17,740 bases of DNA from a virus. Taxonomy: Duplodnaviria; Heunggongvirae; Uroviricota; Caudoviricetes. Numbering within the stretch: position 1 is the stretch's first letter; the number at the start of each line of letters is the position of its first letter. This document shows, piece by piece, positions 320 through 16,757 of this stretch. The stretch is taken from the IMG/VR virus record IMGVR_UViG_3300042401_002002; one strand, 5' to 3'. The notes beneath the pieces are model-generated. The model was given only the letters and a program-made list of their open reading frames with translations, was not told where the DNA came from and searched no databases. The position numbers and the translations under genes are program-made.

Positions 320-422
320 AAATATAAACCGTACAATGTTTGATTATATTGTACGGTTCAATAAACAATGTTAATCGAACATTGTTAAAAATAATTTGAA
401 AATAATAACAATGTTTTGTAAC
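320..422 (+). repeat. Twin-hairpin direct repeat, copy A
   Basis: About 100-nt near-identical copy at 2289-2394; stems 327-358 and 364-386. Confidence 0.9.
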
Positions 423-454
423 CTTATCAAAGTAATTTCGTTAAAGATAGAGTA
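417..454 (+). promoter_or_regulatory. Repeated promoter-like motif
   Basis: TGTAACCTT...TTTCGTTAAAGATAGAGTA upstream of ORF 515. Confidence 0.7.
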
Positions 455-484
455 TTAAGTTAAACAAACAAATCTAAACCTTTT

Positions 485-503
485 CTGTTACTAGGTTAAA
501 CAG
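485..503 (+). promoter_or_regulatory. 5'-leader hairpin (CTGTT/AACAG)
   Basis: TTTT-CTGTT-actaggtta-AACAG, ends 11 nt before ATG 515. Confidence 0.55.
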
Positions 504-514
504 TTTTAAAGTAT

Positions 515-697
515 ATGATTAAAGCATTAGTAAGTATCGTATTATTAGCACAATTAGTTTGTTTAGGTACTATGTTTTCTTCATGTACAATGAATGAAAC
601 ACACTATGGTAGTTCAACCCATAGTTACTACAAAAAAGACTTAAAAAAGGTTGTTTTGAGTAGTAACGTAAATAAATGTTCAAAAATTAGTAGATAA
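515..697 (+). CDS. Small putative lipoprotein
   Basis: Basic N-terminus, hydrophobic stretch, FSS-C24 lipobox-like motif. Confidence 0.6.
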   Translation: MIKALVSIVLLAQLVCLGTMFSSCTMNETHYGSSTHSYYKKDLKKVVLSSNVNKCSKISR

Positions 698-699
698 AA

Positions 700-738
700 C
701 AAAACTTTATTTGTAAGTTTGCGTTAAAGATAAAGTAT
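700..738 (+). promoter_or_regulatory. Repeated promoter-like motif (contains TAnnTTTG)
   Basis: CAAAACTTT...TAAGTTTGCGTTAAAGATAAAGTA. Confidence 0.65.
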
Positions 739-766
739 TCAATTAAACAATTAAATTATTAAGATT

Positions 767-1135
767 ATGGCAACTCGTAGCAGAATAGCATTTGAAGAAA
801 ATAATGAGATAAAATCAATTTATTGTCATTGGGACGGTTATTTGTCAAACAATGGTAAAATATTATTTGAAAACTATACAACACTTGACAAAGTTAAAGA
901 GTTAATTAGTTTAGGAGAGTTAAGTTCTTTAAAAGAAACAATCGAAGAAACTAAAGAAAATAGTTATCATATTAAACAAAATGAAAATATTAACATTGTT
1001 ACAAGTTCAGATGTAAAAGAATATTCAAAAGTATTTGAAGAGTATAATTATCTATTTAAAGACAATGTTTGGTATTTGGTTAATGATAATTTATCATTGG
1101 TTGCATTGAGTGAATATAGAAACTCCTCAAGATAG
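767..1135 (+). CDS. Conserved phage hypothetical protein (MATR..SIYCHWDGY), paralog of 7799
   Basis: AAGATT-ATG start; MATRS and H-x-DGY motifs shared with ORF 7799. Confidence 0.85.
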   Translation: MATRSRIAFEENNEIKSIYCHWDGYLSNNGKILFENYTTLDKVKELISLGELSSLKETIEETKENSYHIKQNENINIVTSSDVKEYSKVFEEYNYLFKDNVWYLVNDNLSLVALSEYRNSSR

Positions 1136-1170
1136 TAAAAGTACAATGTTTAAAAATAATAACAATGTTT

Positions 1171-1208
1171 TGAAACATTGTTTATAAAATTAACGTATAA
1201 GAAGTATA
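1171..1208 (+). promoter_or_regulatory. Repeated promoter-like motif
   Basis: TGAAACATT...TAACGTATAAGAAGTATA. Confidence 0.75.
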
Positions 1209-1219
1209 ACTAAACTTTT

Positions 1220-1235
1220 CAGTTGTTAGTAACTG
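1220..1235 (+). promoter_or_regulatory. 5'-leader hairpin, covariant copy (CAGTT/AACTG)
   Basis: TTTT-CAGTTG-ttag-TAACTG, ends 11 nt before ATG 1247. Confidence 0.6.
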
Positions 1236-1246
1236 TATTAAAGATT

Positions 1247-1477
1247 ATGACCACAGAAGAAAAAAATCAAGCATTAAATAATGCTTTAAGAAGTTTTGGA
1301 TATAGACAAGATTTATTTATCCATACAGTTGGTAAGGACTTATTTATTATTGCCAGTAAAAATGAAGTAGGTGGATTAAATACGTTTGGTTTGGCTTATA
1401 ACTACAAAGAAATGAATTTATTTCTTAAAGCTTATAATATAGGTTTTAATAACAATACATCACTAAAATTAATTTAA
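1247..1477 (+). CDS. Hypothetical protein (76 aa)
   Basis: Start moved from TTG 1223 to the in-frame AAGATT-ATG at 1247. Confidence 0.8.
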   Translation: MTTEEKNQALNNALRSFGYRQDLFIHTVGKDLFIIASKNEVGGLNTFGLAYNYKEMNLFLKAYNIGFNNNTSLKLI

Positions 1478-1491
1478 AAACAATTAACACA

Positions 1492-1632
1492 ATGTTACAG
1501 ATATTTATCAAATCAACAAACATTTTACCATTAAAAGAAATTGTTTGTCAAGTGTTAAAATCACAACCAAAATGTTCAAGCTATAACAATGCTATTAACA
1601 TTAATAGTAAACAAAATATTAACCGTAGATAA
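1492..1632 (+). CDS. Possible 46-aa hypothetical protein
   Basis: ATG-to-TAA ORF filling the gap between ORFs 1247 and 1641. Confidence 0.35.
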   Translation: MLQIFIKSTNILPLKEIVCQVLKSQPKCSSYNNAININSKQNINRR

Positions 1633-1640
1633 CCAAGATT

Positions 1641-2099
1641 ATGGAAACGACAATTTTAAAAAGAATATCGCCACAAAAATTAGCAGTAATGTTCCATGAC
1701 CATGCTGATAAAATCAATATTAGGTATTTCAATGCTTTGACTAAAGAAGAAATAAACGAACATAATGACCACAATGTTTTTACTTTTGAAGTTAAGGTAA
1801 GGCACAATGAAAATGAAAACCCTAATAAGCTTTTCAACAATGTTTTAAAAATAATCAATCAACCAAAAAGAAACATTGTTAAAACCAATAACAACAATGT
1901 TTTTAAACAAACTTCATTGTGTAAACAGGAAAGAATTAGTTTAGTTTCATTGCGTACTGATTTAATTAAAAAGATAGGTACAAATGATTTAAATGTTATT
2001 GATAGTTACATTATACCATTGTATAACGAACAAAGTAATTCAGTTTATTTTGTTGATGAAACAAGTTATTCAAGTGATGAAAGAGCTATTATTCTGTAA
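1641..2099 (+). CDS. Hypothetical protein
   Basis: AAGATT-ATG start, 152 aa; contains three AACAWTGTT sites. Confidence 0.75.
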   Translation: METTILKRISPQKLAVMFHDHADKINIRYFNALTKEEINEHNDHNVFTFEVKVRHNENENPNKLFNNVLKIINQPKRNIVKTNNNNVFKQTSLCKQERISLVSLRTDLIKKIGTNDLNVIDSYIIPLYNEQSNSVYFVDETSYSSDERAIIL

Positions 2100-2127
2100 C
2101 AACAATGTTAAAATAATAACAATGTTT

Positions 2128-2165
2128 TGCAACAATGTTTGTAATATTAACGTATAAGAAGTATA
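2128..2165 (+). promoter_or_regulatory. Repeated promoter-like motif
   Basis: TGCAACAAT...TAACGTATAAGAAGTATA. Confidence 0.75.
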
Positions 2166-2196
2166 AATAATTCAACCACAAACCAAATAAAGTAAA

Positions 2197-2289
2197 ATGA
2201 ATAAGTATAACAATATCCAGGATTTTGATGATTTGCCACATGGTAAAATAAAAGTAACTAAACCTAAAGTAAAGAAGTTTAAAGGTTAA
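2197..2289 (+). CDS. 30-aa peptide with basic tail (MNKYNNIQDFDDLPHGKIKVTKPKVKKFKG)
   Basis: Only ORF between motif 2128 and the twin hairpin at 2289; below the track's size cutoff. Confidence 0.6.
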   Translation: MNKYNNIQDFDDLPHGKIKVTKPKVKKFKG

Positions 2290-2394
2290 AATATAAACTT
2301 AACAATGTTTGATTATGTTGTTAAGTTCAAGAAACAATGTTAGTCGAACATTGTTTAAAAAAATAATTTGAAAATAATAACATTCTTTTGAAAC
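2289..2394 (+). repeat. Twin-hairpin direct repeat, copy B
   Basis: Matches 320-422; stems 2296-2327 and 2332-2356. Confidence 0.9.
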
Positions 2395-2462
2395 ATTGTT
2401 TGTGTTTACAAGGTACTATTAGTAGAAAAACTAAGGACTTTGTTTTAGAAAAATGTTAATAT

Positions 2463-2540
2463 ATGAATATTATTTATTATGTTGGAATACAAATATTGAT
2501 TGGTGTTTATTGTGGTAAAAAGTTAAGTGAAATAGTTTAA
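2463..2540 (+). CDS. 25-aa hydrophobic peptide (MNIIYYVGIQILIGVYCGKKLSEIV)
   Basis: ATG-to-TAA ORF directly upstream of ORF 2557. Confidence 0.45.
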   Translation: MNIIYYVGIQILIGVYCGKKLSEIV

Positions 2541-2556
2541 GTTAATTAAAGTAAAT

Positions 2557-2742
2557 ATGGAGTTAAAAGATTTAAGAAAATTGTACAAAGGTTTAATGGA
2601 ATACATTGATAGTTCAGAAGAGAACTTTAATAAACCTTTAAAAACAAATATAACTGATTATTTGGGTTTAAAGTTTGGTAATAATGATGCAGAACGTGAA
2701 GAAATTTTTACGAACTACATTATTGGTAGATTAGCTAGATAA
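2557..2742 (+). CDS. Hypothetical protein
   Basis: ORF track, 61 aa. Confidence 0.75.
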   Translation: MELKDLRKLYKGLMEYIDSSEENFNKPLKTNITDYLGLKFGNNDAEREEIFTNYIIGRLAR

Positions 2743-2996
2743 ATCCGTAGAAATAACAATGTTTTTGATTTTATTAAAATTTAAACAATGTTATTTTTTT
2801 GCATTTTAACATTGTTTTATAATGCAACAATGTTATTATACAATGTTTCAGAATTAACAATATGTTAATAATGTACCATTAAATACATATTATACTGATT
2901 ACTAAGGTATTAAAAAGTACAATAAATGTATGTTAAATTTAGTAAAAAATTCTTACATTTTATATGTTATATTTTAACAAAAAATACTAGTTTTAT

Positions 2997-5990: not shown

Positions 5991-6221
5991 ATGGAAACAA
6001 CTTACAGAGAATGGCTTCAAAATAATGAAGAAGCTAAAGAATTAATTATTAACGAACATTATAATTTAATACCTAAATCAGCATTAGAGTATATTGATAA
6101 GTTACAGGAACGTAGTGATAAATTAGAAAACGATAATAAAGATTTACTTAAAACTGTTTCTATATTACGTGGATACCTTACTGAATTACAAGAAGAAATT
6201 AAAGTCCTTAAAAATAAGTAA
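5991..6221 (+). CDS. Hypothetical coiled-coil protein
   Basis: 76 aa with heptad-like L/I pattern in the C-terminal half. Confidence 0.8.
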   Translation: METTYREWLQNNEEAKELIINEHYNLIPKSALEYIDKLQERSDKLENDNKDLLKTVSILRGYLTELQEEIKVLKNK

Positions 6222-9908: not shown

Positions 9909-10190
9909 ATGCCTTACCCAAATTATACCTCCGAAATTTACCCTATCTTAGTTAATCTAACAGATAGTGAATTATTAATGATTAGTAATGATTCAATTAT
10001 TAGTGATAAAACGTTTACTAACATTGTAGGTTATCAAACATTGTATAACAACATTGTTAATTATCAAACCTCAAAAGGTTTTAGAACTGATACATATATT
10101 ATTAAATCAATGATTGGTAATTGTATTATTCATTATTGTGGCATGAAGTACTTAAATAATATAGCTAAAGAAGTTTTTGATAAAATTTAA
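9909..10190 (+). CDS. Hypothetical protein
   Basis: ORF track, 93 aa. Confidence 0.75.
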   Translation: MPYPNYTSEIYPILVNLTDSELLMISNDSIISDKTFTNIVGYQTLYNNIVNYQTSKGFRTDTYIIKSMIGNCIIHYCGMKYLNNIAKEVFDKI

Positions 10191-10468: not shown

Positions 10469-10765
10469 ATGTCTTATATTTCAAAATTATTCATTAAGTC
10501 TTTAACATCAAAAGACAAAACTAAGCAAGAAAAAGTTGCTAATTTATTTGCAGTTAATCAAAATTGTGAATTTACACAAACAATTGCAATCAACAAACAA
10601 CCAAAGGATAAAAAATTTCCTGTACATTTATTTACGGTTACAATCTTTCAAAACAACATTAGTTTGTTGAAAACCAACGATGCAACTGAAAAAGAATATA
10701 ATGATATTTTGTTAGCTATTAAAACAAAATTTCCAAAAAATAATGTTATGTTTGTTAAGAATTAA
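10469..10765 (+). CDS. Hypothetical protein
   Basis: AAGATT-ATG start, 98 aa. Confidence 0.8.
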   Translation: MSYISKLFIKSLTSKDKTKQEKVANLFAVNQNCEFTQTIAINKQPKDKKFPVHLFTVTIFQNNISLLKTNDATEKEYNDILLAIKTKFPKNNVMFVKN

Positions 10766-10769
10766 AACC

Positions 10770-10958
10770 ATGACAGGAAGACGTTTATACCGTGAATTTG
10801 CTCAAAGTAAAGGCAAAGAAGCAAAAGAATTTGTATGTATCAAAGAAGAAATGTATAATATTGATACTCTAATCACTAAAGATAATAAAGGTAATGAAGA
10901 ACATACGACAATAAATTACAAAGAATTAGTTCATTGGATAATTAAAAATATTTTGTAA
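10770..10958 (+). CDS. Hypothetical protein (62 aa)
   Basis: Start moved to the in-frame ATG 10770; stop lies inside the next motif's GTAACC. Confidence 0.75.
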   Translation: MTGRRLYREFAQSKGKEAKEFVCIKEEMYNIDTLITKDNKGNEEHTTINYKELVHWIIKNIL

Positions 10959-10989
10959 CCTTATCAAATAACCAACGTATAAACCTATA
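10954..10989 (+). promoter_or_regulatory. Repeated promoter-like motif
   Basis: TGTAACCTTATCAAATAACCAACGTATAAACCTATA. Confidence 0.8.
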
Positions 10990-11005
10990 TAAACAAATAA
11001 AGATT

Positions 11006-11353
11006 ATGAAAATTTACATAATAACATTTATTAATGAGTTTGGTAATAAAACTACAATTTTTTCTAAAGGCTTTACAAAAGAAGAAGCTAAATTGAGGTT
11101 TATTGACGACTATGAATTACCCGAAAAAGTTAAAATAACTAAATGTATTTTAGCTAAAGATGGAGATTATGGTACTTTATCAGAAATGCCAAACCCATAC
11201 ATATTTAAGTTATTTAGTATATTGAAAAGAAATAATTGGATTGAACCAACTAAAAAAGAATTTCCTTCATATAGAGATAAAAATCCAAGTAAAAAGGTTT
11301 GGTTTGAAGATATTCATTTTATTTGGAGAAATTATGATATAAATTCTTTGTAA
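11006..11353 (+). CDS. Hypothetical protein
   Basis: AAGATT-ATG start, 115 aa. Confidence 0.8.
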   Translation: MKIYIITFINEFGNKTTIFSKGFTKEEAKLRFIDDYELPEKVKITKCILAKDGDYGTLSEMPNPYIFKLFSILKRNNWIEPTKKEFPSYRDKNPSKKVWFEDIHFIWRNYDINSL

Positions 11354-11356
11354 TTT

Positions 11357-11393
11357 TGCAACCTTATCAAATAACCAACGTATAAGTAGTATA
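11357..11393 (+). promoter_or_regulatory. Repeated promoter-like motif
   Basis: TGCAACCTTATCAAATAACCAACGTATAAGTAGTATA; 26 nt identical to the copy at 10954. Confidence 0.8.
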
Positions 11394-11413
11394 ATTAAAA
11401 ACTTAATCCTTTT

Positions 11414-11433
11414 CTGTTAACTAGGACAAACAG
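11414..11433 (+). promoter_or_regulatory. 5'-leader hairpin
   Basis: TTTT-CTGTT-aactaggaca-AACAG, ends 11 nt before ATG 11445. Confidence 0.55.
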
Positions 11434-11444
11434 TAATTAAAATT

Positions 11445-11921
11445 ATGTCAAACTACTGTGTTAATTACCTACAAATTATTGGAAATGATTCTAACGAAAT
11501 AGAAAGATTCCAAAACCTTATTACTAATAACAATGATAAAACCAATAATGGTTTATTGTTAGAAACAAAAACAACTAGTGAAGTTATCTTTGATGTTTAT
11601 ATCAATGATGACAATAGAATTGATTTCTTAACAAAATACACAACTAACATAGATATGTTCAAAGAATTGTCTGAATTATTTCCTACATTAACTATTAAGT
11701 TAGAATACATGGAACTAGGTTATGATGTTTTTGGTAAGGCTACATTTGAAAATGGTACTGTTAAACATAAACAATTAAGTGAAAGTGATTTTGAATTGAT
11801 TACAGAATGTTGCGATAGTGATGTTGATATTGAAACATACAAATATAAAGACTTTGAAAGCGAAAGTAGAGAAGAAGTTATAGAATATTTGTTTGAAGAC
11901 TTGTATAACGAATTTGTTTAA
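11445..11921 (+). CDS. DUF1281/YubB ferredoxin-like domain protein
   Basis: MSNYCVNYLQIIG N-terminus and LSELFPTLTIKLEYMELGYDVFG match my recollection of this family's pattern. Confidence 0.65.
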   Translation: MSNYCVNYLQIIGNDSNEIERFQNLITNNNDKTNNGLLLETKTTSEVIFDVYINDDNRIDFLTKYTTNIDMFKELSELFPTLTIKLEYMELGYDVFGKATFENGTVKHKQLSESDFELITECCDSDVDIETYKYKDFESESREEVIEYLFEDLYNEFV

Positions 11922-11942
11922 TTATTAAAATATAAGATTATC

Positions 11943-12404
11943 ATGTTAACCTTAGAAAAACCAAAACAGTTACTTTATTTGTGTTCAATTAAAGGTAAAG
12001 AAAACATTATCAGTAAGTTAAAACAAGATAATACTAGAATTAGTAACTATGTTTTAAAATCTTTAGAATGTCAATCAATTTTAGAAGATAGTTGTACATT
12101 AATAACCAACAAAGAATTATTAAAAGATTTGTTTAGTTATGTTATTGATGTTGCTCAAACAGCTAATGGTAAAATATATGATGCTGAAAATATTCATAGT
12201 TTTACTAAAAACGTACAACATAGTAATTTTGTTATCAATCAAATGAAACAAAATAAAGGTTTGTTTTATTATAACAAACTAAATGATGTTTATATTTATT
12301 TCTTACCAACTAGTTATTATTCACAAATAACACAAATGTTGGTTTGTACTAAAGATTTAGAAGATTACAAAGCGATTAATAACGATTTAAGCTTGTTGTT
12401 CTAA
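11943..12404 (+). CDS. Hypothetical protein, C-terminus INNDLSLLF
   Basis: ORF track, 153 aa. Confidence 0.8.
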   Translation: MLTLEKPKQLLYLCSIKGKENIISKLKQDNTRISNYVLKSLECQSILEDSCTLITNKELLKDLFSYVIDVAQTANGKIYDAENIHSFTKNVQHSNFVINQMKQNKGLFYYNKLNDVYIYFLPTSYYSQITQMLVCTKDLEDYKAINNDLSLLF

Positions 12405-12489
12405 TTAATACAAATGAAAACAATATTTATATTGTTGATTATATAGATAAAATTAAGTAACTTTAGACTATTTAAGTTTAAACAACTAA

Positions 12490-12717
12490 ATGGAAACTAA
12501 CTTAATCTTTAAAGAAAATATCACTAATAACAATATTTTAACTAAACTCAATAAAAAAACACAAGCTATTCTAGTAATAGATAATGACAGTTTTATTGAG
12601 TTTCTATCCAACGGAACTTTTTTTGTTCCAACTAATGAAAATGTAGGTATCAATTGCACCAACATTAAAGATGCAATTTATGAGATTGAACGAACTAAAA
12701 ATAAATTATTGGTTTAA
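12490..12717 (+). CDS. Hypothetical protein
   Basis: ORF track, 75 aa. Confidence 0.75.
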   Translation: METNLIFKENITNNNILTKLNKKTQAILVIDNDSFIEFLSNGTFFVPTNENVGINCTNIKDAIYEIERTKNKLLV

Positions 12718-12755
12718 TGCAACCTTTTATAAGGTTTACACGTTAAAGATGTATA
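12718..12755 (+). promoter_or_regulatory. Repeated promoter-like motif
   Basis: TGCAACCTTTTATAAGGTTTACACGTTAAAGATGTATA. Confidence 0.8.
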
Positions 12756-12776
12756 ACAATTAAACAAATTAAGATT

Positions 12777-13196
12777 ATGTCAACAGGAAGAAAAAGATTA
12801 AATGATGCGTTAAAGAAAGGTGAATTTTTTAACGCATTTAAAAATATAACGTATGATTATGATTCAAAATATATTCATATTATTGATAAAAATAAATTAA
12901 ATTTACTTTATGAATATGTTATAATTAATGCTGAAATATTAAATGGTAAAATGGATAGTATTGTAACGTATGGAACAGGTGCAACACATGAACAAAATAT
13001 TATTGATAAAGAAATAAATAATTTATTCATTGAAACAGTTAAAAAAGGAAAATGTTTATTCTTTTTAATGCCAAATAATGAATATATTGGTTTAGTACCT
13101 TTAGAAGAAAAATCTGAACTTCTTCAACCTAGTTTTACAGTTGAAGACTTTGAAAAATTTCAAGAAATTAATAAAGATTTAAGTTTATTATATTAA
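12777..13196 (+). CDS. Hypothetical protein, C-terminus INKDLSLLY
   Basis: AAGATT-ATG start, 139 aa. Confidence 0.8.
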   Translation: MSTGRKRLNDALKKGEFFNAFKNITYDYDSKYIHIIDKNKLNLLYEYVIINAEILNGKMDSIVTYGTGATHEQNIIDKEINNLFIETVKKGKCLFFLMPNNEYIGLVPLEEKSELLQPSFTVEDFEKFQEINKDLSLLY

Positions 13197-13201
13197 AAAT
13201 T

Positions 13202-13456
13202 ATGTTAACCGATAAGATTTTAAAACAAGCTAAAGTAATTAAGCAAAAAGAAAAATGTCCTTTTGTTCTTATTATAAAAGAAAAAATTGTGCCTTTATAT
13301 AATATGGAACAAAAACATTTTGTTGAACAAAATTTCATTAAAAGACAAAACTTAAGGTTGTTTGTATCTTTGTTAAATCATGTTTTAAAAACAAAAGAAA
13401 CTGATTATCAAAAACTTAAACAACTTTATGTTGAACAAGTAGAAATAATTGACTAA
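13202..13456 (+). CDS. Hypothetical protein
   Basis: ORF track, 84 aa. Confidence 0.75.
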   Translation: MLTDKILKQAKVIKQKEKCPFVLIIKEKIVPLYNMEQKHFVEQNFIKRQNLRLFVSLLNHVLKTKETDYQKLKQLYVEQVEIID

Positions 13457-13460
13457 TAAG

Positions 13461-13498
13461 TGTAACATTTTATAAGGTTTTCACGTTAAAGAATATAT
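13461..13498 (+). promoter_or_regulatory. Repeated promoter-like motif (last copy in window)
   Basis: TGTAACATTTTATAAGGTTTTCACGTTAAAGAATATAT. Confidence 0.75.
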
Positions 13499-13520
13499 AA
13501 CAATTAAACAAATTAAGATT

Positions 13521-13841
13521 ATGGAAATTTTATCAACAACTTACTTAGACCACAAAAGAAAAAGTAAGTTAAAAATTAAAGGTATTATCAATCCACTTGA
13601 AAGAAGTGTAAGAATTATTCAATCAACAGGAAATGTTATTGTAGAAGGTATTATATATTTTAAAGATGTTGATGAATGGAATAGTTTTACTTTATTAGAT
13701 GGTAGAGTAGTGGATTGTCATTTTGATAGTTATGAAAACAATACTATTTCATTCAGTGTATATGAAGTTATTGACAATGTTAGACAAGACAATAAATCTA
13801 TTCATATTCAACTTAAGTTAGAAACTATTAAATTAACGTAA
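13521..13841 (+). CDS. Hypothetical protein
   Basis: AAGATT-ATG start, 106 aa. Confidence 0.8.
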   Translation: MEILSTTYLDHKRKSKLKIKGIINPLERSVRIIQSTGNVIVEGIIYFKDVDEWNSFTLLDGRVVDCHFDSYENNTISFSVYEVIDNVRQDNKSIHIQLKLETIKLT

Positions 13842-13845
13842 GTCT

Positions 13846-14118
13846 ATGGCACGTTTAACAGTTACAAAAGTAACCTCTTTGATTTTGCATACAGAGGATT
13901 ATAATAATGCAGGTCTTAAACAATCTGATATTATGGAGCGTATTAAAAAAGAAATTGGGGGTGTGTGTATGGTTGAAGAATTTCCTATTAATTCAAATAT
14001 ACAAGTTCATTTTGATACTAATAATGAAAGTGTTATTAATATGGTATTTTATAAAATAAATATATTGCTTGAGTTTATGTTAATGGAACATAAAAAATTA
14101 AATAAATTTAAAAACTAA
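13846..14118 (+). CDS. Hypothetical protein
   Basis: ORF track, 90 aa. Confidence 0.75.
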   Translation: MARLTVTKVTSLILHTEDYNNAGLKQSDIMERIKKEIGGVCMVEEFPINSNIQVHFDTNNESVINMVFYKINILLEFMLMEHKKLNKFKN

Positions 14119-14152
14119 AAGTTATAGTTTATCTTTAAAACTGATTATAAGT

Positions 14153-14848
14153 ATGTTTCATTTCCTTAAAAATATGTTTTCTTCTTCAGAAGATAGAAAT
14201 AAATTCAACAAAAATATGTCAAACAATGTTATTACAGAACTAACAAAGTCTGGTAAATTTAAAACACCTAATGAATTTTTTATCTTAGGTGATACAATCA
14301 CAGACCCTTTAACTAACAATCTTTACAATACAGGTGTTACACAAGAAAAATCAACTGCAATGTCAGAAATTGCTAAAAATCTTTCATTAAATATAGTCGA
14401 TTTACCTTTAAGTAAAAATGTTGCAGAAAAACAAGACCGTTGTACTTTTGAATACAATGCTCAATACAAAGCTTTGAGAAACATAACAATGTTGTTCAAG
14501 AATGTTTTAAAAGAAAAACTATCCATTAACCAACATAAGACAGTTGAACTTTGTATCAAAGCAGTAAGAAAGGATAGTGATTTTATTAAAAATCGTTTAA
14601 CCGAAGGTACTTATGATAAAACAAAAGGTACTGATTACGATGAAGAAGTATTAACATTGTTTGCTTCATTAAAATCTTTGAGGGTTATCAGAAAAACATT
14701 GTTTTATATTCAAGAAAACAAATCTGATGAACTAAGTAAAAAAAGAATTGTTTCAAAATTAATTGATATTCTAAACAATGAAATCAATTCAAGACAAACA
14801 ATGTTGGATTCTTTGAAAAAAGATTTAAACATTGTTGTAAATAAGTAA
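14153..14848 (+). CDS. Hypothetical protein (231 aa, helical)
   Basis: ORF track; contains six AACAWTGTT sites. Confidence 0.85.
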   Translation: MFHFLKNMFSSSEDRNKFNKNMSNNVITELTKSGKFKTPNEFFILGDTITDPLTNNLYNTGVTQEKSTAMSEIAKNLSLNIVDLPLSKNVAEKQDRCTFEYNAQYKALRNITMLFKNVLKEKLSINQHKTVELCIKAVRKDSDFIKNRLTEGTYDKTKGTDYDEEVLTLFASLKSLRVIRKTLFYIQENKSDELSKKRIVSKLIDILNNEINSRQTMLDSLKKDLNIVVNK

Positions 14849-14881
14849 ATTAATTAGTAAGTTTGTTAAAAATATAATATT

Positions 14882-15109
14882 ATGAGTTTGTTTAAGTTAT
14901 TTATTCCAAAAGATAAAGGACAAGTTGTTACAGAACTTGAAAGTTGGACTGTTAAATGGGAAGTTGCAACATCACTTAGATGGGGACAATCTCAAGTTTA
15001 TCATAAAGTCTTTGTAAAAGAAAATGAAGCTAAAGAATTTAAAAAACAACTTGAAAACTCTGCATCTTTTATAAAGACTCCGATTAATACTGAGATTGTA
15101 CGTAATTAA
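14882..15109 (+). CDS. Phage hypothetical protein
   Basis: ORF track, 75 aa. Confidence 0.8.
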   Translation: MSLFKLFIPKDKGQVVTELESWTVKWEVATSLRWGQSQVYHKVFVKENEAKEFKKQLENSASFIKTPINTEIVRN

Positions 15110-15121
15110 TTTGTAAATGTT

Positions 15122-15466
15122 ATGGAAATTGTAACTAAAATAGAAGGTGTTCATTCGTTTGGTAGAAGAAACATAAACAACAATGTTTGTGAATATCAAT
15201 TACATAGTCCTAGAATGTGTGAAAATGATATTTTAATTTATTACTATCCACAAGAAAATGTAATAGGTATCTATCAAGTAACTGAAGAACTAAGTTATTT
15301 CAATAAAGATGATTTGCAACTATGTACAGGTTTAATGAATAGAATAAATCCAGGTTCATTAGCTGATTGTATAGCAAACATTGAAAGACAAAATTTTGAA
15401 TTAGCTAAAAAGTTAGTTGGAATACTTAATAAAATGTTTGAAAAATATAGTTTAGTTGCTTGTTAA
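15122..15466 (+). CDS. Hypothetical protein
   Basis: ORF track, 114 aa. Confidence 0.8.
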   Translation: MEIVTKIEGVHSFGRRNINNNVCEYQLHSPRMCENDILIYYYPQENVIGIYQVTEELSYFNKDDLQLCTGLMNRINPGSLADCIANIERQNFELAKKLVGILNKMFEKYSLVAC

Positions 15467-15467
15467 T

Positions 15468-15527
15468 ATGGAATTGTTAATAACAATTATAATAACATTC
15501 TTAATCTTCATGTTATTTGCATTTTAA
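15468..15527 (+). CDS. 19-aa hydrophobic peptide (MELLITIIITFLIFMLFAF)
   Basis: ATG 1 nt after the upstream stop; almost entirely hydrophobic. Confidence 0.45.
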   Translation: MELLITIIITFLIFMLFAF

Positions 15528-15625
15528 ACAATGTTAGAGAGAAGACAACATTGTTTGTGAACAATGTTCAGTTAAGTAAAGAAAGCTGTAAGAAGGTGTG
15601 TTAAAATAGAAAATTAAATAAGTCA

Positions 15626-15850
15626 ATGAACAACGAAATAACAGAATTATTTAAATCAATATCAGATAATGATTTAAAATTAGTAATGCAAGAAATGAAA
15701 GATAGCGAATCAACAGGTTATATTGGTGATTTAGTTAGAGATTATGCTAGAAAGACTGTTCTAATAACAGGTAATGATGTTTCAACCGACCTTTACATGG
15801 TTCAAATAAATTTATTCAAGGAAGCTGCTTTTAGGTGGTTAAATAACTAA
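15626..15850 (+). CDS. Hypothetical protein
   Basis: ORF track, 74 aa. Confidence 0.8.
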   Translation: MNNEITELFKSISDNDLKLVMQEMKDSESTGYIGDLVRDYARKTVLITGNDVSTDLYMVQINLFKEAAFRWLNN

Positions 15851-15861
15851 AAAATAATATT

Positions 15862-16053
15862 ATGTTAACAGGAATTATAATTTATCAAATCATTGCAGGT
15901 TTAATTATGTGTGGGTTCTTTTTGGAGAATGCTGATGCAGAAACACCTATGAAAACTATTGTTACTTGGTTGTTTATCAACTTAATAGTAGGTTGTATAA
16001 CTTTACCAATGCAGATTGGTTCTATCTTAGCAAGAATAAACAATAACAAATAA
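15862..16053 (+). CDS. Small membrane protein (two hydrophobic segments)
   Basis: 63 aa with two hydrophobic stretches. Confidence 0.75.
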   Translation: MLTGIIIYQIIAGLIMCGFFLENADAETPMKTIVTWLFINLIVGCITLPMQIGSILARINNNK

Positions 16054-16057
16054 GAAT

Positions 16058-16279
16058 ATGCGATATACTATTAAGTACAAAGTTGATAATTGGTTGTTTG
16101 ATACATACTTTCAATACGAAACATTGTTAGATGCCTTTATTGATTTAAAACAATGTTCAGAAATATCTGAAAACAAGTTCTACGTGATAGACAATGTTAA
16201 AGATAAGGAGGTAAAACCGACATTGTTTTATAACATTGTTGTTGAAATAAGAATGTTTATTAATAAGTTAGTTAAGTAA
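16058..16279 (+). CDS. Hypothetical protein
   Basis: ORF track, 73 aa; three exact and two near AACAWTGTT sites. Confidence 0.7.
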   Translation: MRYTIKYKVDNWLFDTYFQYETLLDAFIDLKQCSEISENKFYVIDNVKDKEVKPTLFYNIVVEIRMFINKLVK

Positions 16280-16286
16280 TAAGAAT

Positions 16287-16757
16287 ATGCCAATCAAACT
16301 AAAAGAATATAAAATAAAACCTTATGAAGGTGATGGAATTGTAAAGAGACATGGACACTTATCTGTTGATGGGTTATTTAAACATTTTAAAGATAAATCA
16401 GTAAAACGTGTTTTAAATGGTAATATTAATCATGTTCCTATAACATTTTTACAATGGAATGTTTATTATTTAAATTACAAAAAGAACAACAATGTTTGTA
16501 AATGTGGTATTTGCGGTGCTGAAGCAACACATGTTTCTGTTGTTAGTTTTGCACATTCAACTACAAAAAAATCATTTAGGTTCTTTACTATTAAGGATAA
16601 AAAAGAAATGATTTTCAATATTGACCATATCATACCTGTATCAAAAGGTGGTTCAAATGATATTGATAATTTACAAATAACTTGTAAAGATTGTAATTCA
16701 TTAAAGTCGAATAAAATTATAATTAAAAGAGAAAGTGTTTTAAAAGCAACCATATAA
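16287..16757 (+). CDS. HNH endonuclease
   Basis: CGIC ... NIDHIIPVSKGGSNDIDNLQITCKDCNSLKSN is a canonical zinc-binding HNH motif. Confidence 0.9.
   Translation: MPIKLKEYKIKPYEGDGIVKRHGHLSVDGLFKHFKDKSVKRVLNGNINHVPITFLQWNVYYLNYKKNNNVCKCGICGAEATHVSVVSFAHSTTKKSFRFFTIKDKKEMIFNIDHIIPVSKGGSNDIDNLQITCKDCNSLKSNKIIIKRESVLKATI

Follow-up and report, generated by a model that had tools for sequence, protein, structure and literature searches.

The present analysis concerns the palindromic word AACAWTGTT (W = A or T) in a 17,740-nucleotide stretch of Caudoviricetes DNA (IMG/VR record IMGVR_UViG_3300042401_002002), which at its full length is here called the window. The window is the final 17,740 b of a metagenome contig of 43,265 b, of which 43.2 kb were rebuilt from overlapping loci; the ends of this contig result from breaks in the assembly at IS607/TnpB copies and are not genome ends. 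A contig of 308,574 b encodes a protein identical to one from the window's contig, and the site map described here covers the 43-kb contig and the loci of relatives rather than the whole genome of ~308 kb. DNA matches to the window were absent among GenBank phages. The DNA has a G+C content of 24% and carries dense small open reading frames (ORFs) on the plus strand, without Shine-Dalgarno sequences. Its bipartite promoters number about 22, with G(T/C/A)AAC(C/A)TT as box 1, canonically GTAACCTTAT, and ACGTATAAG or CGTTAAAGA as box 2.

A pattern search yielded 35 exact AACAWTGTT sites in the window, compared with 0.55 expected from base composition and a mean of 1.26 (maximum 6) in dinucleotide-preserving shuffles, 0 of 200 of which reached 35. 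Of all 9-mers of the window, the form AACAATGTT ranks first in frequency and the form AACATTGTT third. Twenty sites are located at 364-2834 (cluster 1), one at 10050 and 14 at 14222-16496 (cluster 2). The original prediction, made from the letters of the DNA alone, had listed 20 coordinates in cluster 1, a total of 35 sites against fewer than one expected, and a single exact site within 2.85-14.2 kb; all 20 coordinates proved to be exact matches, the total was reproduced, and the single site is the one at 10050. In the upstream 25.5 kb of the same contig 4 exact sites were found together with a small cluster of TACATTGTT variants. In the L122/L127 composite, ~17.5-17.6 kb before the window begins, a divergent-promoter region has an intergenic cluster of two exact sites with about four TACATTGTT variants, and two further exact sites upstream of the window sit in inverted copies of a repeat related to insertion sequences (IS).

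The core of the word is exactly 9 bp long, a 4+1+4 palindrome with both halves invariant and with flanks that carry no information. The central base is a mix of A and T (21:14 overall); variants with central C or G were absent, and one-mismatch variants are scarce and mostly changed at the outermost base. Although 82% of the window is coding, 19 of the 35 sites are intergenic, the remaining 16 lying in ORFs and being spread over all three frames. The minimum site-to-site spacing of 13 bp, which is also the most frequent one, is consistent with the footprint of one dimer per site. The pairs at 13-14 bp that had been predicted were recovered at 364/378, 1161/1174, 2118/2131 and 2333/2347, and at 2826 with a variant at 2840.

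Relatives were located via protein homologues, with proteins 50-79% identical, and the same word was found in the same two regions of four diverged relatives. The locus L139 (homologue 66% identical), which is colinear with window positions 10490-16757, has 24 sites, all inside 2.5 kb; L261 and L264, both colinear with cluster 1, have 14 and 9 sites, respectively; and the marine contig locus L136 has 10 sites in 1.8 kb. In a 47-kb relative contig (homologue 50% identical), of which 30.5 kb were read, 40 sites are present, all of them in the first 22 kb; the 8.6 kb that follow are free of the word. The abundance of the word is thus uneven over the sequence covered, as is also apparent from the sparse sites upstream of the window; a uniform genome-wide abundance was the outcome named by the original prediction as speaking against it.

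In comparison of the window with its relatives, 12 of 14 sites were kept in L139 (9-mer background identity 0.32), 13 of 17 in L261 (background 0.49) and 7 of 13 in L264 (background 0.10, p = 7e-5). Central A<->T flips between relatives leave the word intact, one of them being a Leu-to-Met change, and where sites are lost in one relative new ones occur close by, so that density is maintained. Of the 15 N[NI]V tripeptides encoded in window ORFs, 10 are encoded by the site, while codon usage expects ~0.12 for each and ~2 in total. These comparisons show that AACAWTGTT is maintained by selection at the level of the DNA, including inside genes. Since sites occur in all three frames, the word is not an amino-acid repeat, and an origin as a coding repeat was ruled out on this basis; an origin as an IS-end repeat was ruled out because relatives without TnpB retain the word.

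The site-bearing features are listed below by window position; no strand is assigned to any of them.

320-422, twin-hairpin and promoter module: 364/378 form a 9-bp inverted pair, and 407 precedes the AAC of the canonical box 1 (418) by 13 bp.

992-1000, single site in ORF 767-1135: read as NIV and kept in L261.

1142-1182, promoter module P1172: variant TACAATGTT at 1142, site 1161 in the upstream register, and site 1174 on the box 1 position, 19 nt before ACGTATAAG.

1836-1901, three in-frame sites in ORF 1641-2099 (1836, 1872, 1893): three of three retained in L261 and two of three in L264.

2101-2139, promoter module P2129: site 2118 in the upstream register, site 2131 on the box 1 position, and a further site at 2101.

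2289-2400, second twin-hairpin module: 2301 in hairpin 1, inverted pair 2333/2347, and variant AACATTCTT at 2379.

2392, decayed promoter within module 2289-2400: the site occupies the box 1 position.

2755-2848, promoter-less array: four exact sites and the 2840 variant, spaced by 29, 24, 18 and 14.

10050-10058, isolated exact site in ORF 9909-10190: two core variants shortly upstream.

14222-14836, six sites in a 231-aa gene: in two reading frames, five kept in L139; homologues hold 4-7 sites per gene.

15122-15466, ORF with a single exact site at 15179-15187.

15516-15571, intergenic triplet (15527, 15547, 15560): upstream of a box-2-like element and kept in L139.

16120-16240, 73-aa gene: three exact sites and two variants in all three frames; the homologue in a distant relative has five.

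16488-16496, site in an HNH gene: at the NNVCKC zinc motif and kept in L139.

Cluster 2 sits in a nine-gene run with one promoter-like element. Within this run, the 231-aa protein (window 14153-14848) has a variable, disordered N-terminal third and 135 C-terminal residues that are near-invariant in nine homologues and are predicted with high confidence to form a four-helix bundle; the bundle is generic, with weak ferritin-like matches only and no informative structural match. The HNH gene of L139 (L139:5351-6028) encodes 225 aa, compared with 156 aa in the window, and contains nine sites, eight of them in its 3′ tail. In this tail, eight AACAATGTT sites in an array are translated as NNV repeats (DNNV, LNNV, GNNV, TNNV, INNV, ANNV), and the tail abuts the next bipartite promoter directly; the gene has taken in this array at its 3′ end. 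With regard to the genes of the window in general, the start context AAGATTATG was observed at 12 start codons (e.g. 761, 1241, 5090 and 12771), which are without Shine-Dalgarno sequences and follow very short leaders after the promoter. Scans with Rfam and for tRNAs gave no match.

The position of the sites relative to promoter elements was counted for the window and four relatives pooled, including all sites up to 70 nt upstream of box 2. Among these 30 promoter-proximal sites, the box 1 register accounts for 10, and another 10 are located 13 bp farther upstream. In the box 1 register the site starts 19 nt before box 2 (18 nt for the CGTT type), so that site and box 1 share their AAC. All lineages show this register exactly. 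The site in the upstream register is AACAATGTT in 10 of 10 cases, and that in the box 1 register is AACATTGTT, which also fits the box 1 core AAC(C/A)TT, in 9 of 10. The promoter overlaps described by the original prediction were confirmed at promoters 418, 1172 and 2129. In the distant relative, box 1 at one register is present as AACCTTTAT, AACAAAGTT or AACATTGTT. In the relative represented by the L133/L137 composite, AACAAAGTT occurs 12 times compared with ~1 expected and fills the box 1 position of several promoters, so that box 1 has lineage-specific flavours one letter from the palindrome.

With moderate confidence, AACAWTGTT is interpreted as the recognition word of a putative two-fold symmetric, sequence-specific DNA-binding protein that would switch a subset of the bipartite promoters. 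This reading is based on the symmetry and exactness of the word, the 13-bp minimum spacing, the selection at DNA level and the two promoter registers; dyad symmetry and a fixed position relative to promoter elements (20 of the 30 promoter-proximal sites) are also what is expected of operators. The putative binder would be encoded by a clade of aquatic T4-like jumbo phages or by their host. Because the sites in the box 1 register fit both the box 1 core and the palindrome, an overlapping operator is favoured, at which the bound protein would compete with or replace the reader of box 1 and so switch these promoters. Timed shut-off of the promoters is the favoured outcome, the alternative being activation of an alternative promoter class. 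The additional copies in arrays and in ORFs may raise local occupancy, and could act by cooperative binding, by looping between the two patches or as transcription roadblocks, comparable to the dispersed operators of other mobile elements. Conservation, codon bias and the two registers thus bear out the part of the original prediction that proposed binding sites of a dimeric protein tied to a promoter subset, but they do not single out one function from its list; between repressor, centromere and iteron, the link to promoters favours a transcription regulator.

Several observations weigh against a promoter-switching binder. Many of the promoter modules are paralogous or homologous, so that the counts per register do not represent independent events; promoter registers account for about a fifth to a quarter of the sites, the rest lying elsewhere; cluster 2 lies mainly within a promoter-poor gene run; and the word is exceptionally exact for an operator. 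The fixed orientation, with AACAATGTT upstream and AACATTGTT at box 1, could also reflect hairpin potential, the reading of box 1 or common descent. Moreover, when 92 ORFs from the 43-kb contig were compared with Pfam and PHROGs, none matched a DNA-binding family (helix-turn-helix (HTH), ribbon-helix-helix or ParB), and the motif-rich 231-aa gene was rejected as the binder since its product is predicted to be a plain four-helix bundle with no DNA-binding fold. The original prediction had suggested looking for ParB, TubR or HTH genes elsewhere in the genome; neither an HTH nor a ParB match was present among these 92 ORFs.

Other candidates and sources were also considered. ORF 5991-6221 (76 aa), which encodes a leucine-zipper-like coiled coil behind an acidic N-terminus, was rejected as a bZIP binder because its sub-threshold bZIP_1 match spans the zipper only and its N-terminus is acidic. 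Atlas and PDB sequence searches with five other conserved ORFs provided no lead. For the idea of a host regulon, four arbitrary Bacteroidota genomes, which may not represent the host, were searched and contained 88-135 sites compared with 77-96 for a control word, i.e. no enrichment. Scans of viral and genome contigs for paired sites returned chance scatter only, and no relative emerged when viral contigs were scanned at the protein level. In the chromosome of Spiroplasma phoeniceum P40 (L145, L148, L214), AACAWTGTT occurs 199 times compared with 58 for the control word; these copies are in repeated elements with 13-bp doublets and triplets, adjoining small ORFs and an IS30-like gene, and may represent a regulatory repeat of a mobile element that has this word in common with the phage.

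Three other explanations, each considered improbable, assign the sites to replication, to genome organisation or to stem-loops. In the first, the sites are iterons of a replication origin, at which an initiator dimer would bind the arrays, especially that at 2755-2848, with the second cluster acting like P4 crr or the lambda iterons in the O gene. This array is compact (five sites in 94 bp) and is adjoined by ~150 bp of 84-86% A+T, followed by promoter P2998, as expected for iterons beside an A+T-rich region; its first three spacings (29, 24, 18) are found again in L261, where a scaffold gap covers the position of the fifth site, and one conserved gene contains six sites. The A+T-rich tract is not unique, having counterparts elsewhere in the window, and the sites are not confined to an origin but spread over 17-22 kb overall, those of the distant relative being scattered over ~20 kb. 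Twenty sites are locked to promoter registers. In the Pfam and PHROG scan of the 43-kb contig, no initiator, helicase-loader or primase gene was found near the arrays, and the 231-aa protein has no DNA-binding fold. Taken together, an origin of this kind seems unlikely.

According to the second explanation, the sites would be a centromere-like array or one that organises the genome, and their reader would be a ParB/KorB-like or ribbon-helix-helix protein which also silences nearby promoters, as KorB does on plasmid RK2 from operators both near and far. By analogy, the near-exact, clustered palindromes, both adjacent to promoters and in genes, resemble the KorB operators, which are likewise located from 4-10 bp to >1 kb from promoters (PMC11790492). 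The word has 9 bp, not the 13-16 bp of such palindromes, and neither a ParB-family match (HTH/CTPase) nor ParA, ParB or TubZ-like genes were found in the 43 kb; partition is also not obviously needed by a lytic T4-like phage. This function is therefore doubtful.

The third explanation regards the modules as PeSL-type cassettes of stem-loop and promoter, in which pairs of sites would fold as attenuator hairpins (in RNA or in extruded DNA) and the word would be kept uniform by recombination between cassettes instead of by a protein. For pairs whose centres are complementary, the folding energies are -7 to -8.7 kcal/mol, with z down to -4.8, and a stem-loop within the promoter is found in T4-type PeSLs (PMC2839356). 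A promoter with an overlapping stem-loop is present at 320-422, 1142-1182 and 2289-2400, and absent at 2118/2131 (-3 kcal/mol) and at 15 in-gene sites. The second hairpin of the twin-hairpin module in L261 (L261:4490-4530) has the compensatory combination AACATTGTC..GACAATGTT, in which pairing is kept while each site is off-word; promoter pairs are invariably AACAATGTT followed by AACATTGTT; and at spacings of 17-35 bp complementary centres prevail (25 vs 9). At spacings of 13-16 bp, on the other hand, complementary and matching centres are balanced (9 vs 8), the pairs 2118/2131 and L264 2088/2102 have a central mismatch, about half of the sites are unpaired, and the stems are without a following U-tract. 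The in-ORF sites are under codon-level selection, and the word is identical across phages whose flanks have diverged to 69% identity. A purely structural origin of the word is accordingly regarded as having a low probability.

The least probable of the functional alternatives is that the factor reading box 1 also reads the word, which would be nothing but the symmetric variant of box 1 with the highest affinity; perfect copies would then grade the order of firing or titrate the factor. The exact coincidence of the AAC of site and box 1, the agreement of 9 of the 10 box 1 register sites, as AACATTGTT, with the core AAC(C/A)TT, and the occurrence of AACCTTTAT, AACAAAGTT (12 copies) and AACATTGTT as box 1 at one register in a relative are in line with a common reader. 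By contrast, the canonical box 1 GTAACCTTAT is asymmetric and shares with the word only AAC-N-TT, the GTT half is kept as strictly as the AAC half, and the box 1 register site 2131 is AACAATGTT, flipped in L261. Injection-stop repeats of the T5 type lie in a terminal repeat at the genome end that enters first; an injection-stop role, also listed by the original prediction, is without support here because the contig ends are IS assembly breaks and not genome ends.

An extended form of the promoter-switching reading is speculative and was given a rather small, though not negligible, chance. Here, a lytic T4-like jumbo-phage clade would run a KorB- or stoperator-like silencing system on a 9-bp palindrome: a small protein would load on two patches of ~2.5 kb that bracket an early-gene block of 11 kb; it would sit on box 1 at selected promoters, coat the patches or bring them into loops, and insulate or shut off early transcription, and selection would be so strong that codons, and even protein sequence, are shaped by it. 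In T4-type phages, temporal control is commonly attributed to factors that remodel RNA polymerase and not to DNA-bound repressors with dispersed operators. A selected word on box 1 and in coding sequence, across an uncultivated phage clade, points to an unrecognised DNA-reading regulator, for which an AACAWTGTT duplex would be a precise bait. It also indicates that a regulatory word can strongly constrain codon choice in small phage genes.

Dispersed operator-like words are already known in temperate phages and plasmids, including the phiC31 repeats. The ori iterons of lambda and the ori/crr of P4 are short dyad-symmetric or repeated arrays by an A+T-rich tract, with sites in a gene and two clusters kilobases apart. 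AACAWTGTT resembles them in its array by an A+T-rich tract, its in-gene sites and its two clusters separated by kilobases; in these origins the sites occupy no more than a few hundred bp and have no promoter register, whereas the sites described here are register-tied and no initiator gene was found. The stoperators of Cluster A mycobacteriophages, bound by L5 gp71-type repressors, have been proposed to stop both initiation and elongation, and are likewise a short word that occurs more than 20 times per phage genome, at promoters and within transcribed regions (PMC9283540). They differ in being asymmetric 13-mers that are bound by a monomer, depend on orientation and are located in short intergenic spaces of temperate phages with a known repressor (PMC9283540), while AACAWTGTT is a 9-bp palindrome with many in-ORF copies in a phage that looks lytic and T4-like, and with a central A/T of 21:14 it is not oriented with transcription. 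In the case of the KorB operators OB of RK2, near-exact palindromes are found directly upstream of promoter elements or distant from them, and one protein serves both regulation and DNA organisation (PMC11790492). The OB site has 13-16 bp and is used by a ParB-family CTP clamp working with KorA (PMC11790492); here the site has 9 bp, and no such gene was seen in 43 kb. The PeSL cassettes of T4-type phages are comparable as repeated intergenic promoters with an overlapping stem-loop, which flank small ORFans in hyperplastic early regions (PMC2839356, PMC4122927). Their stems consist of G/C tracts without a fixed word and do not occur in genes (PMC2839356, PMC4122927), whereas here a 9-mer is conserved as a unit and is also present in coding sequence. 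What is new in comparison with all of these systems is the combination, with no recognisable binder on the contig, of a very short exact palindrome that is superimposed on a phage-specific promoter box, written into coding sequence and retained clade-wide.

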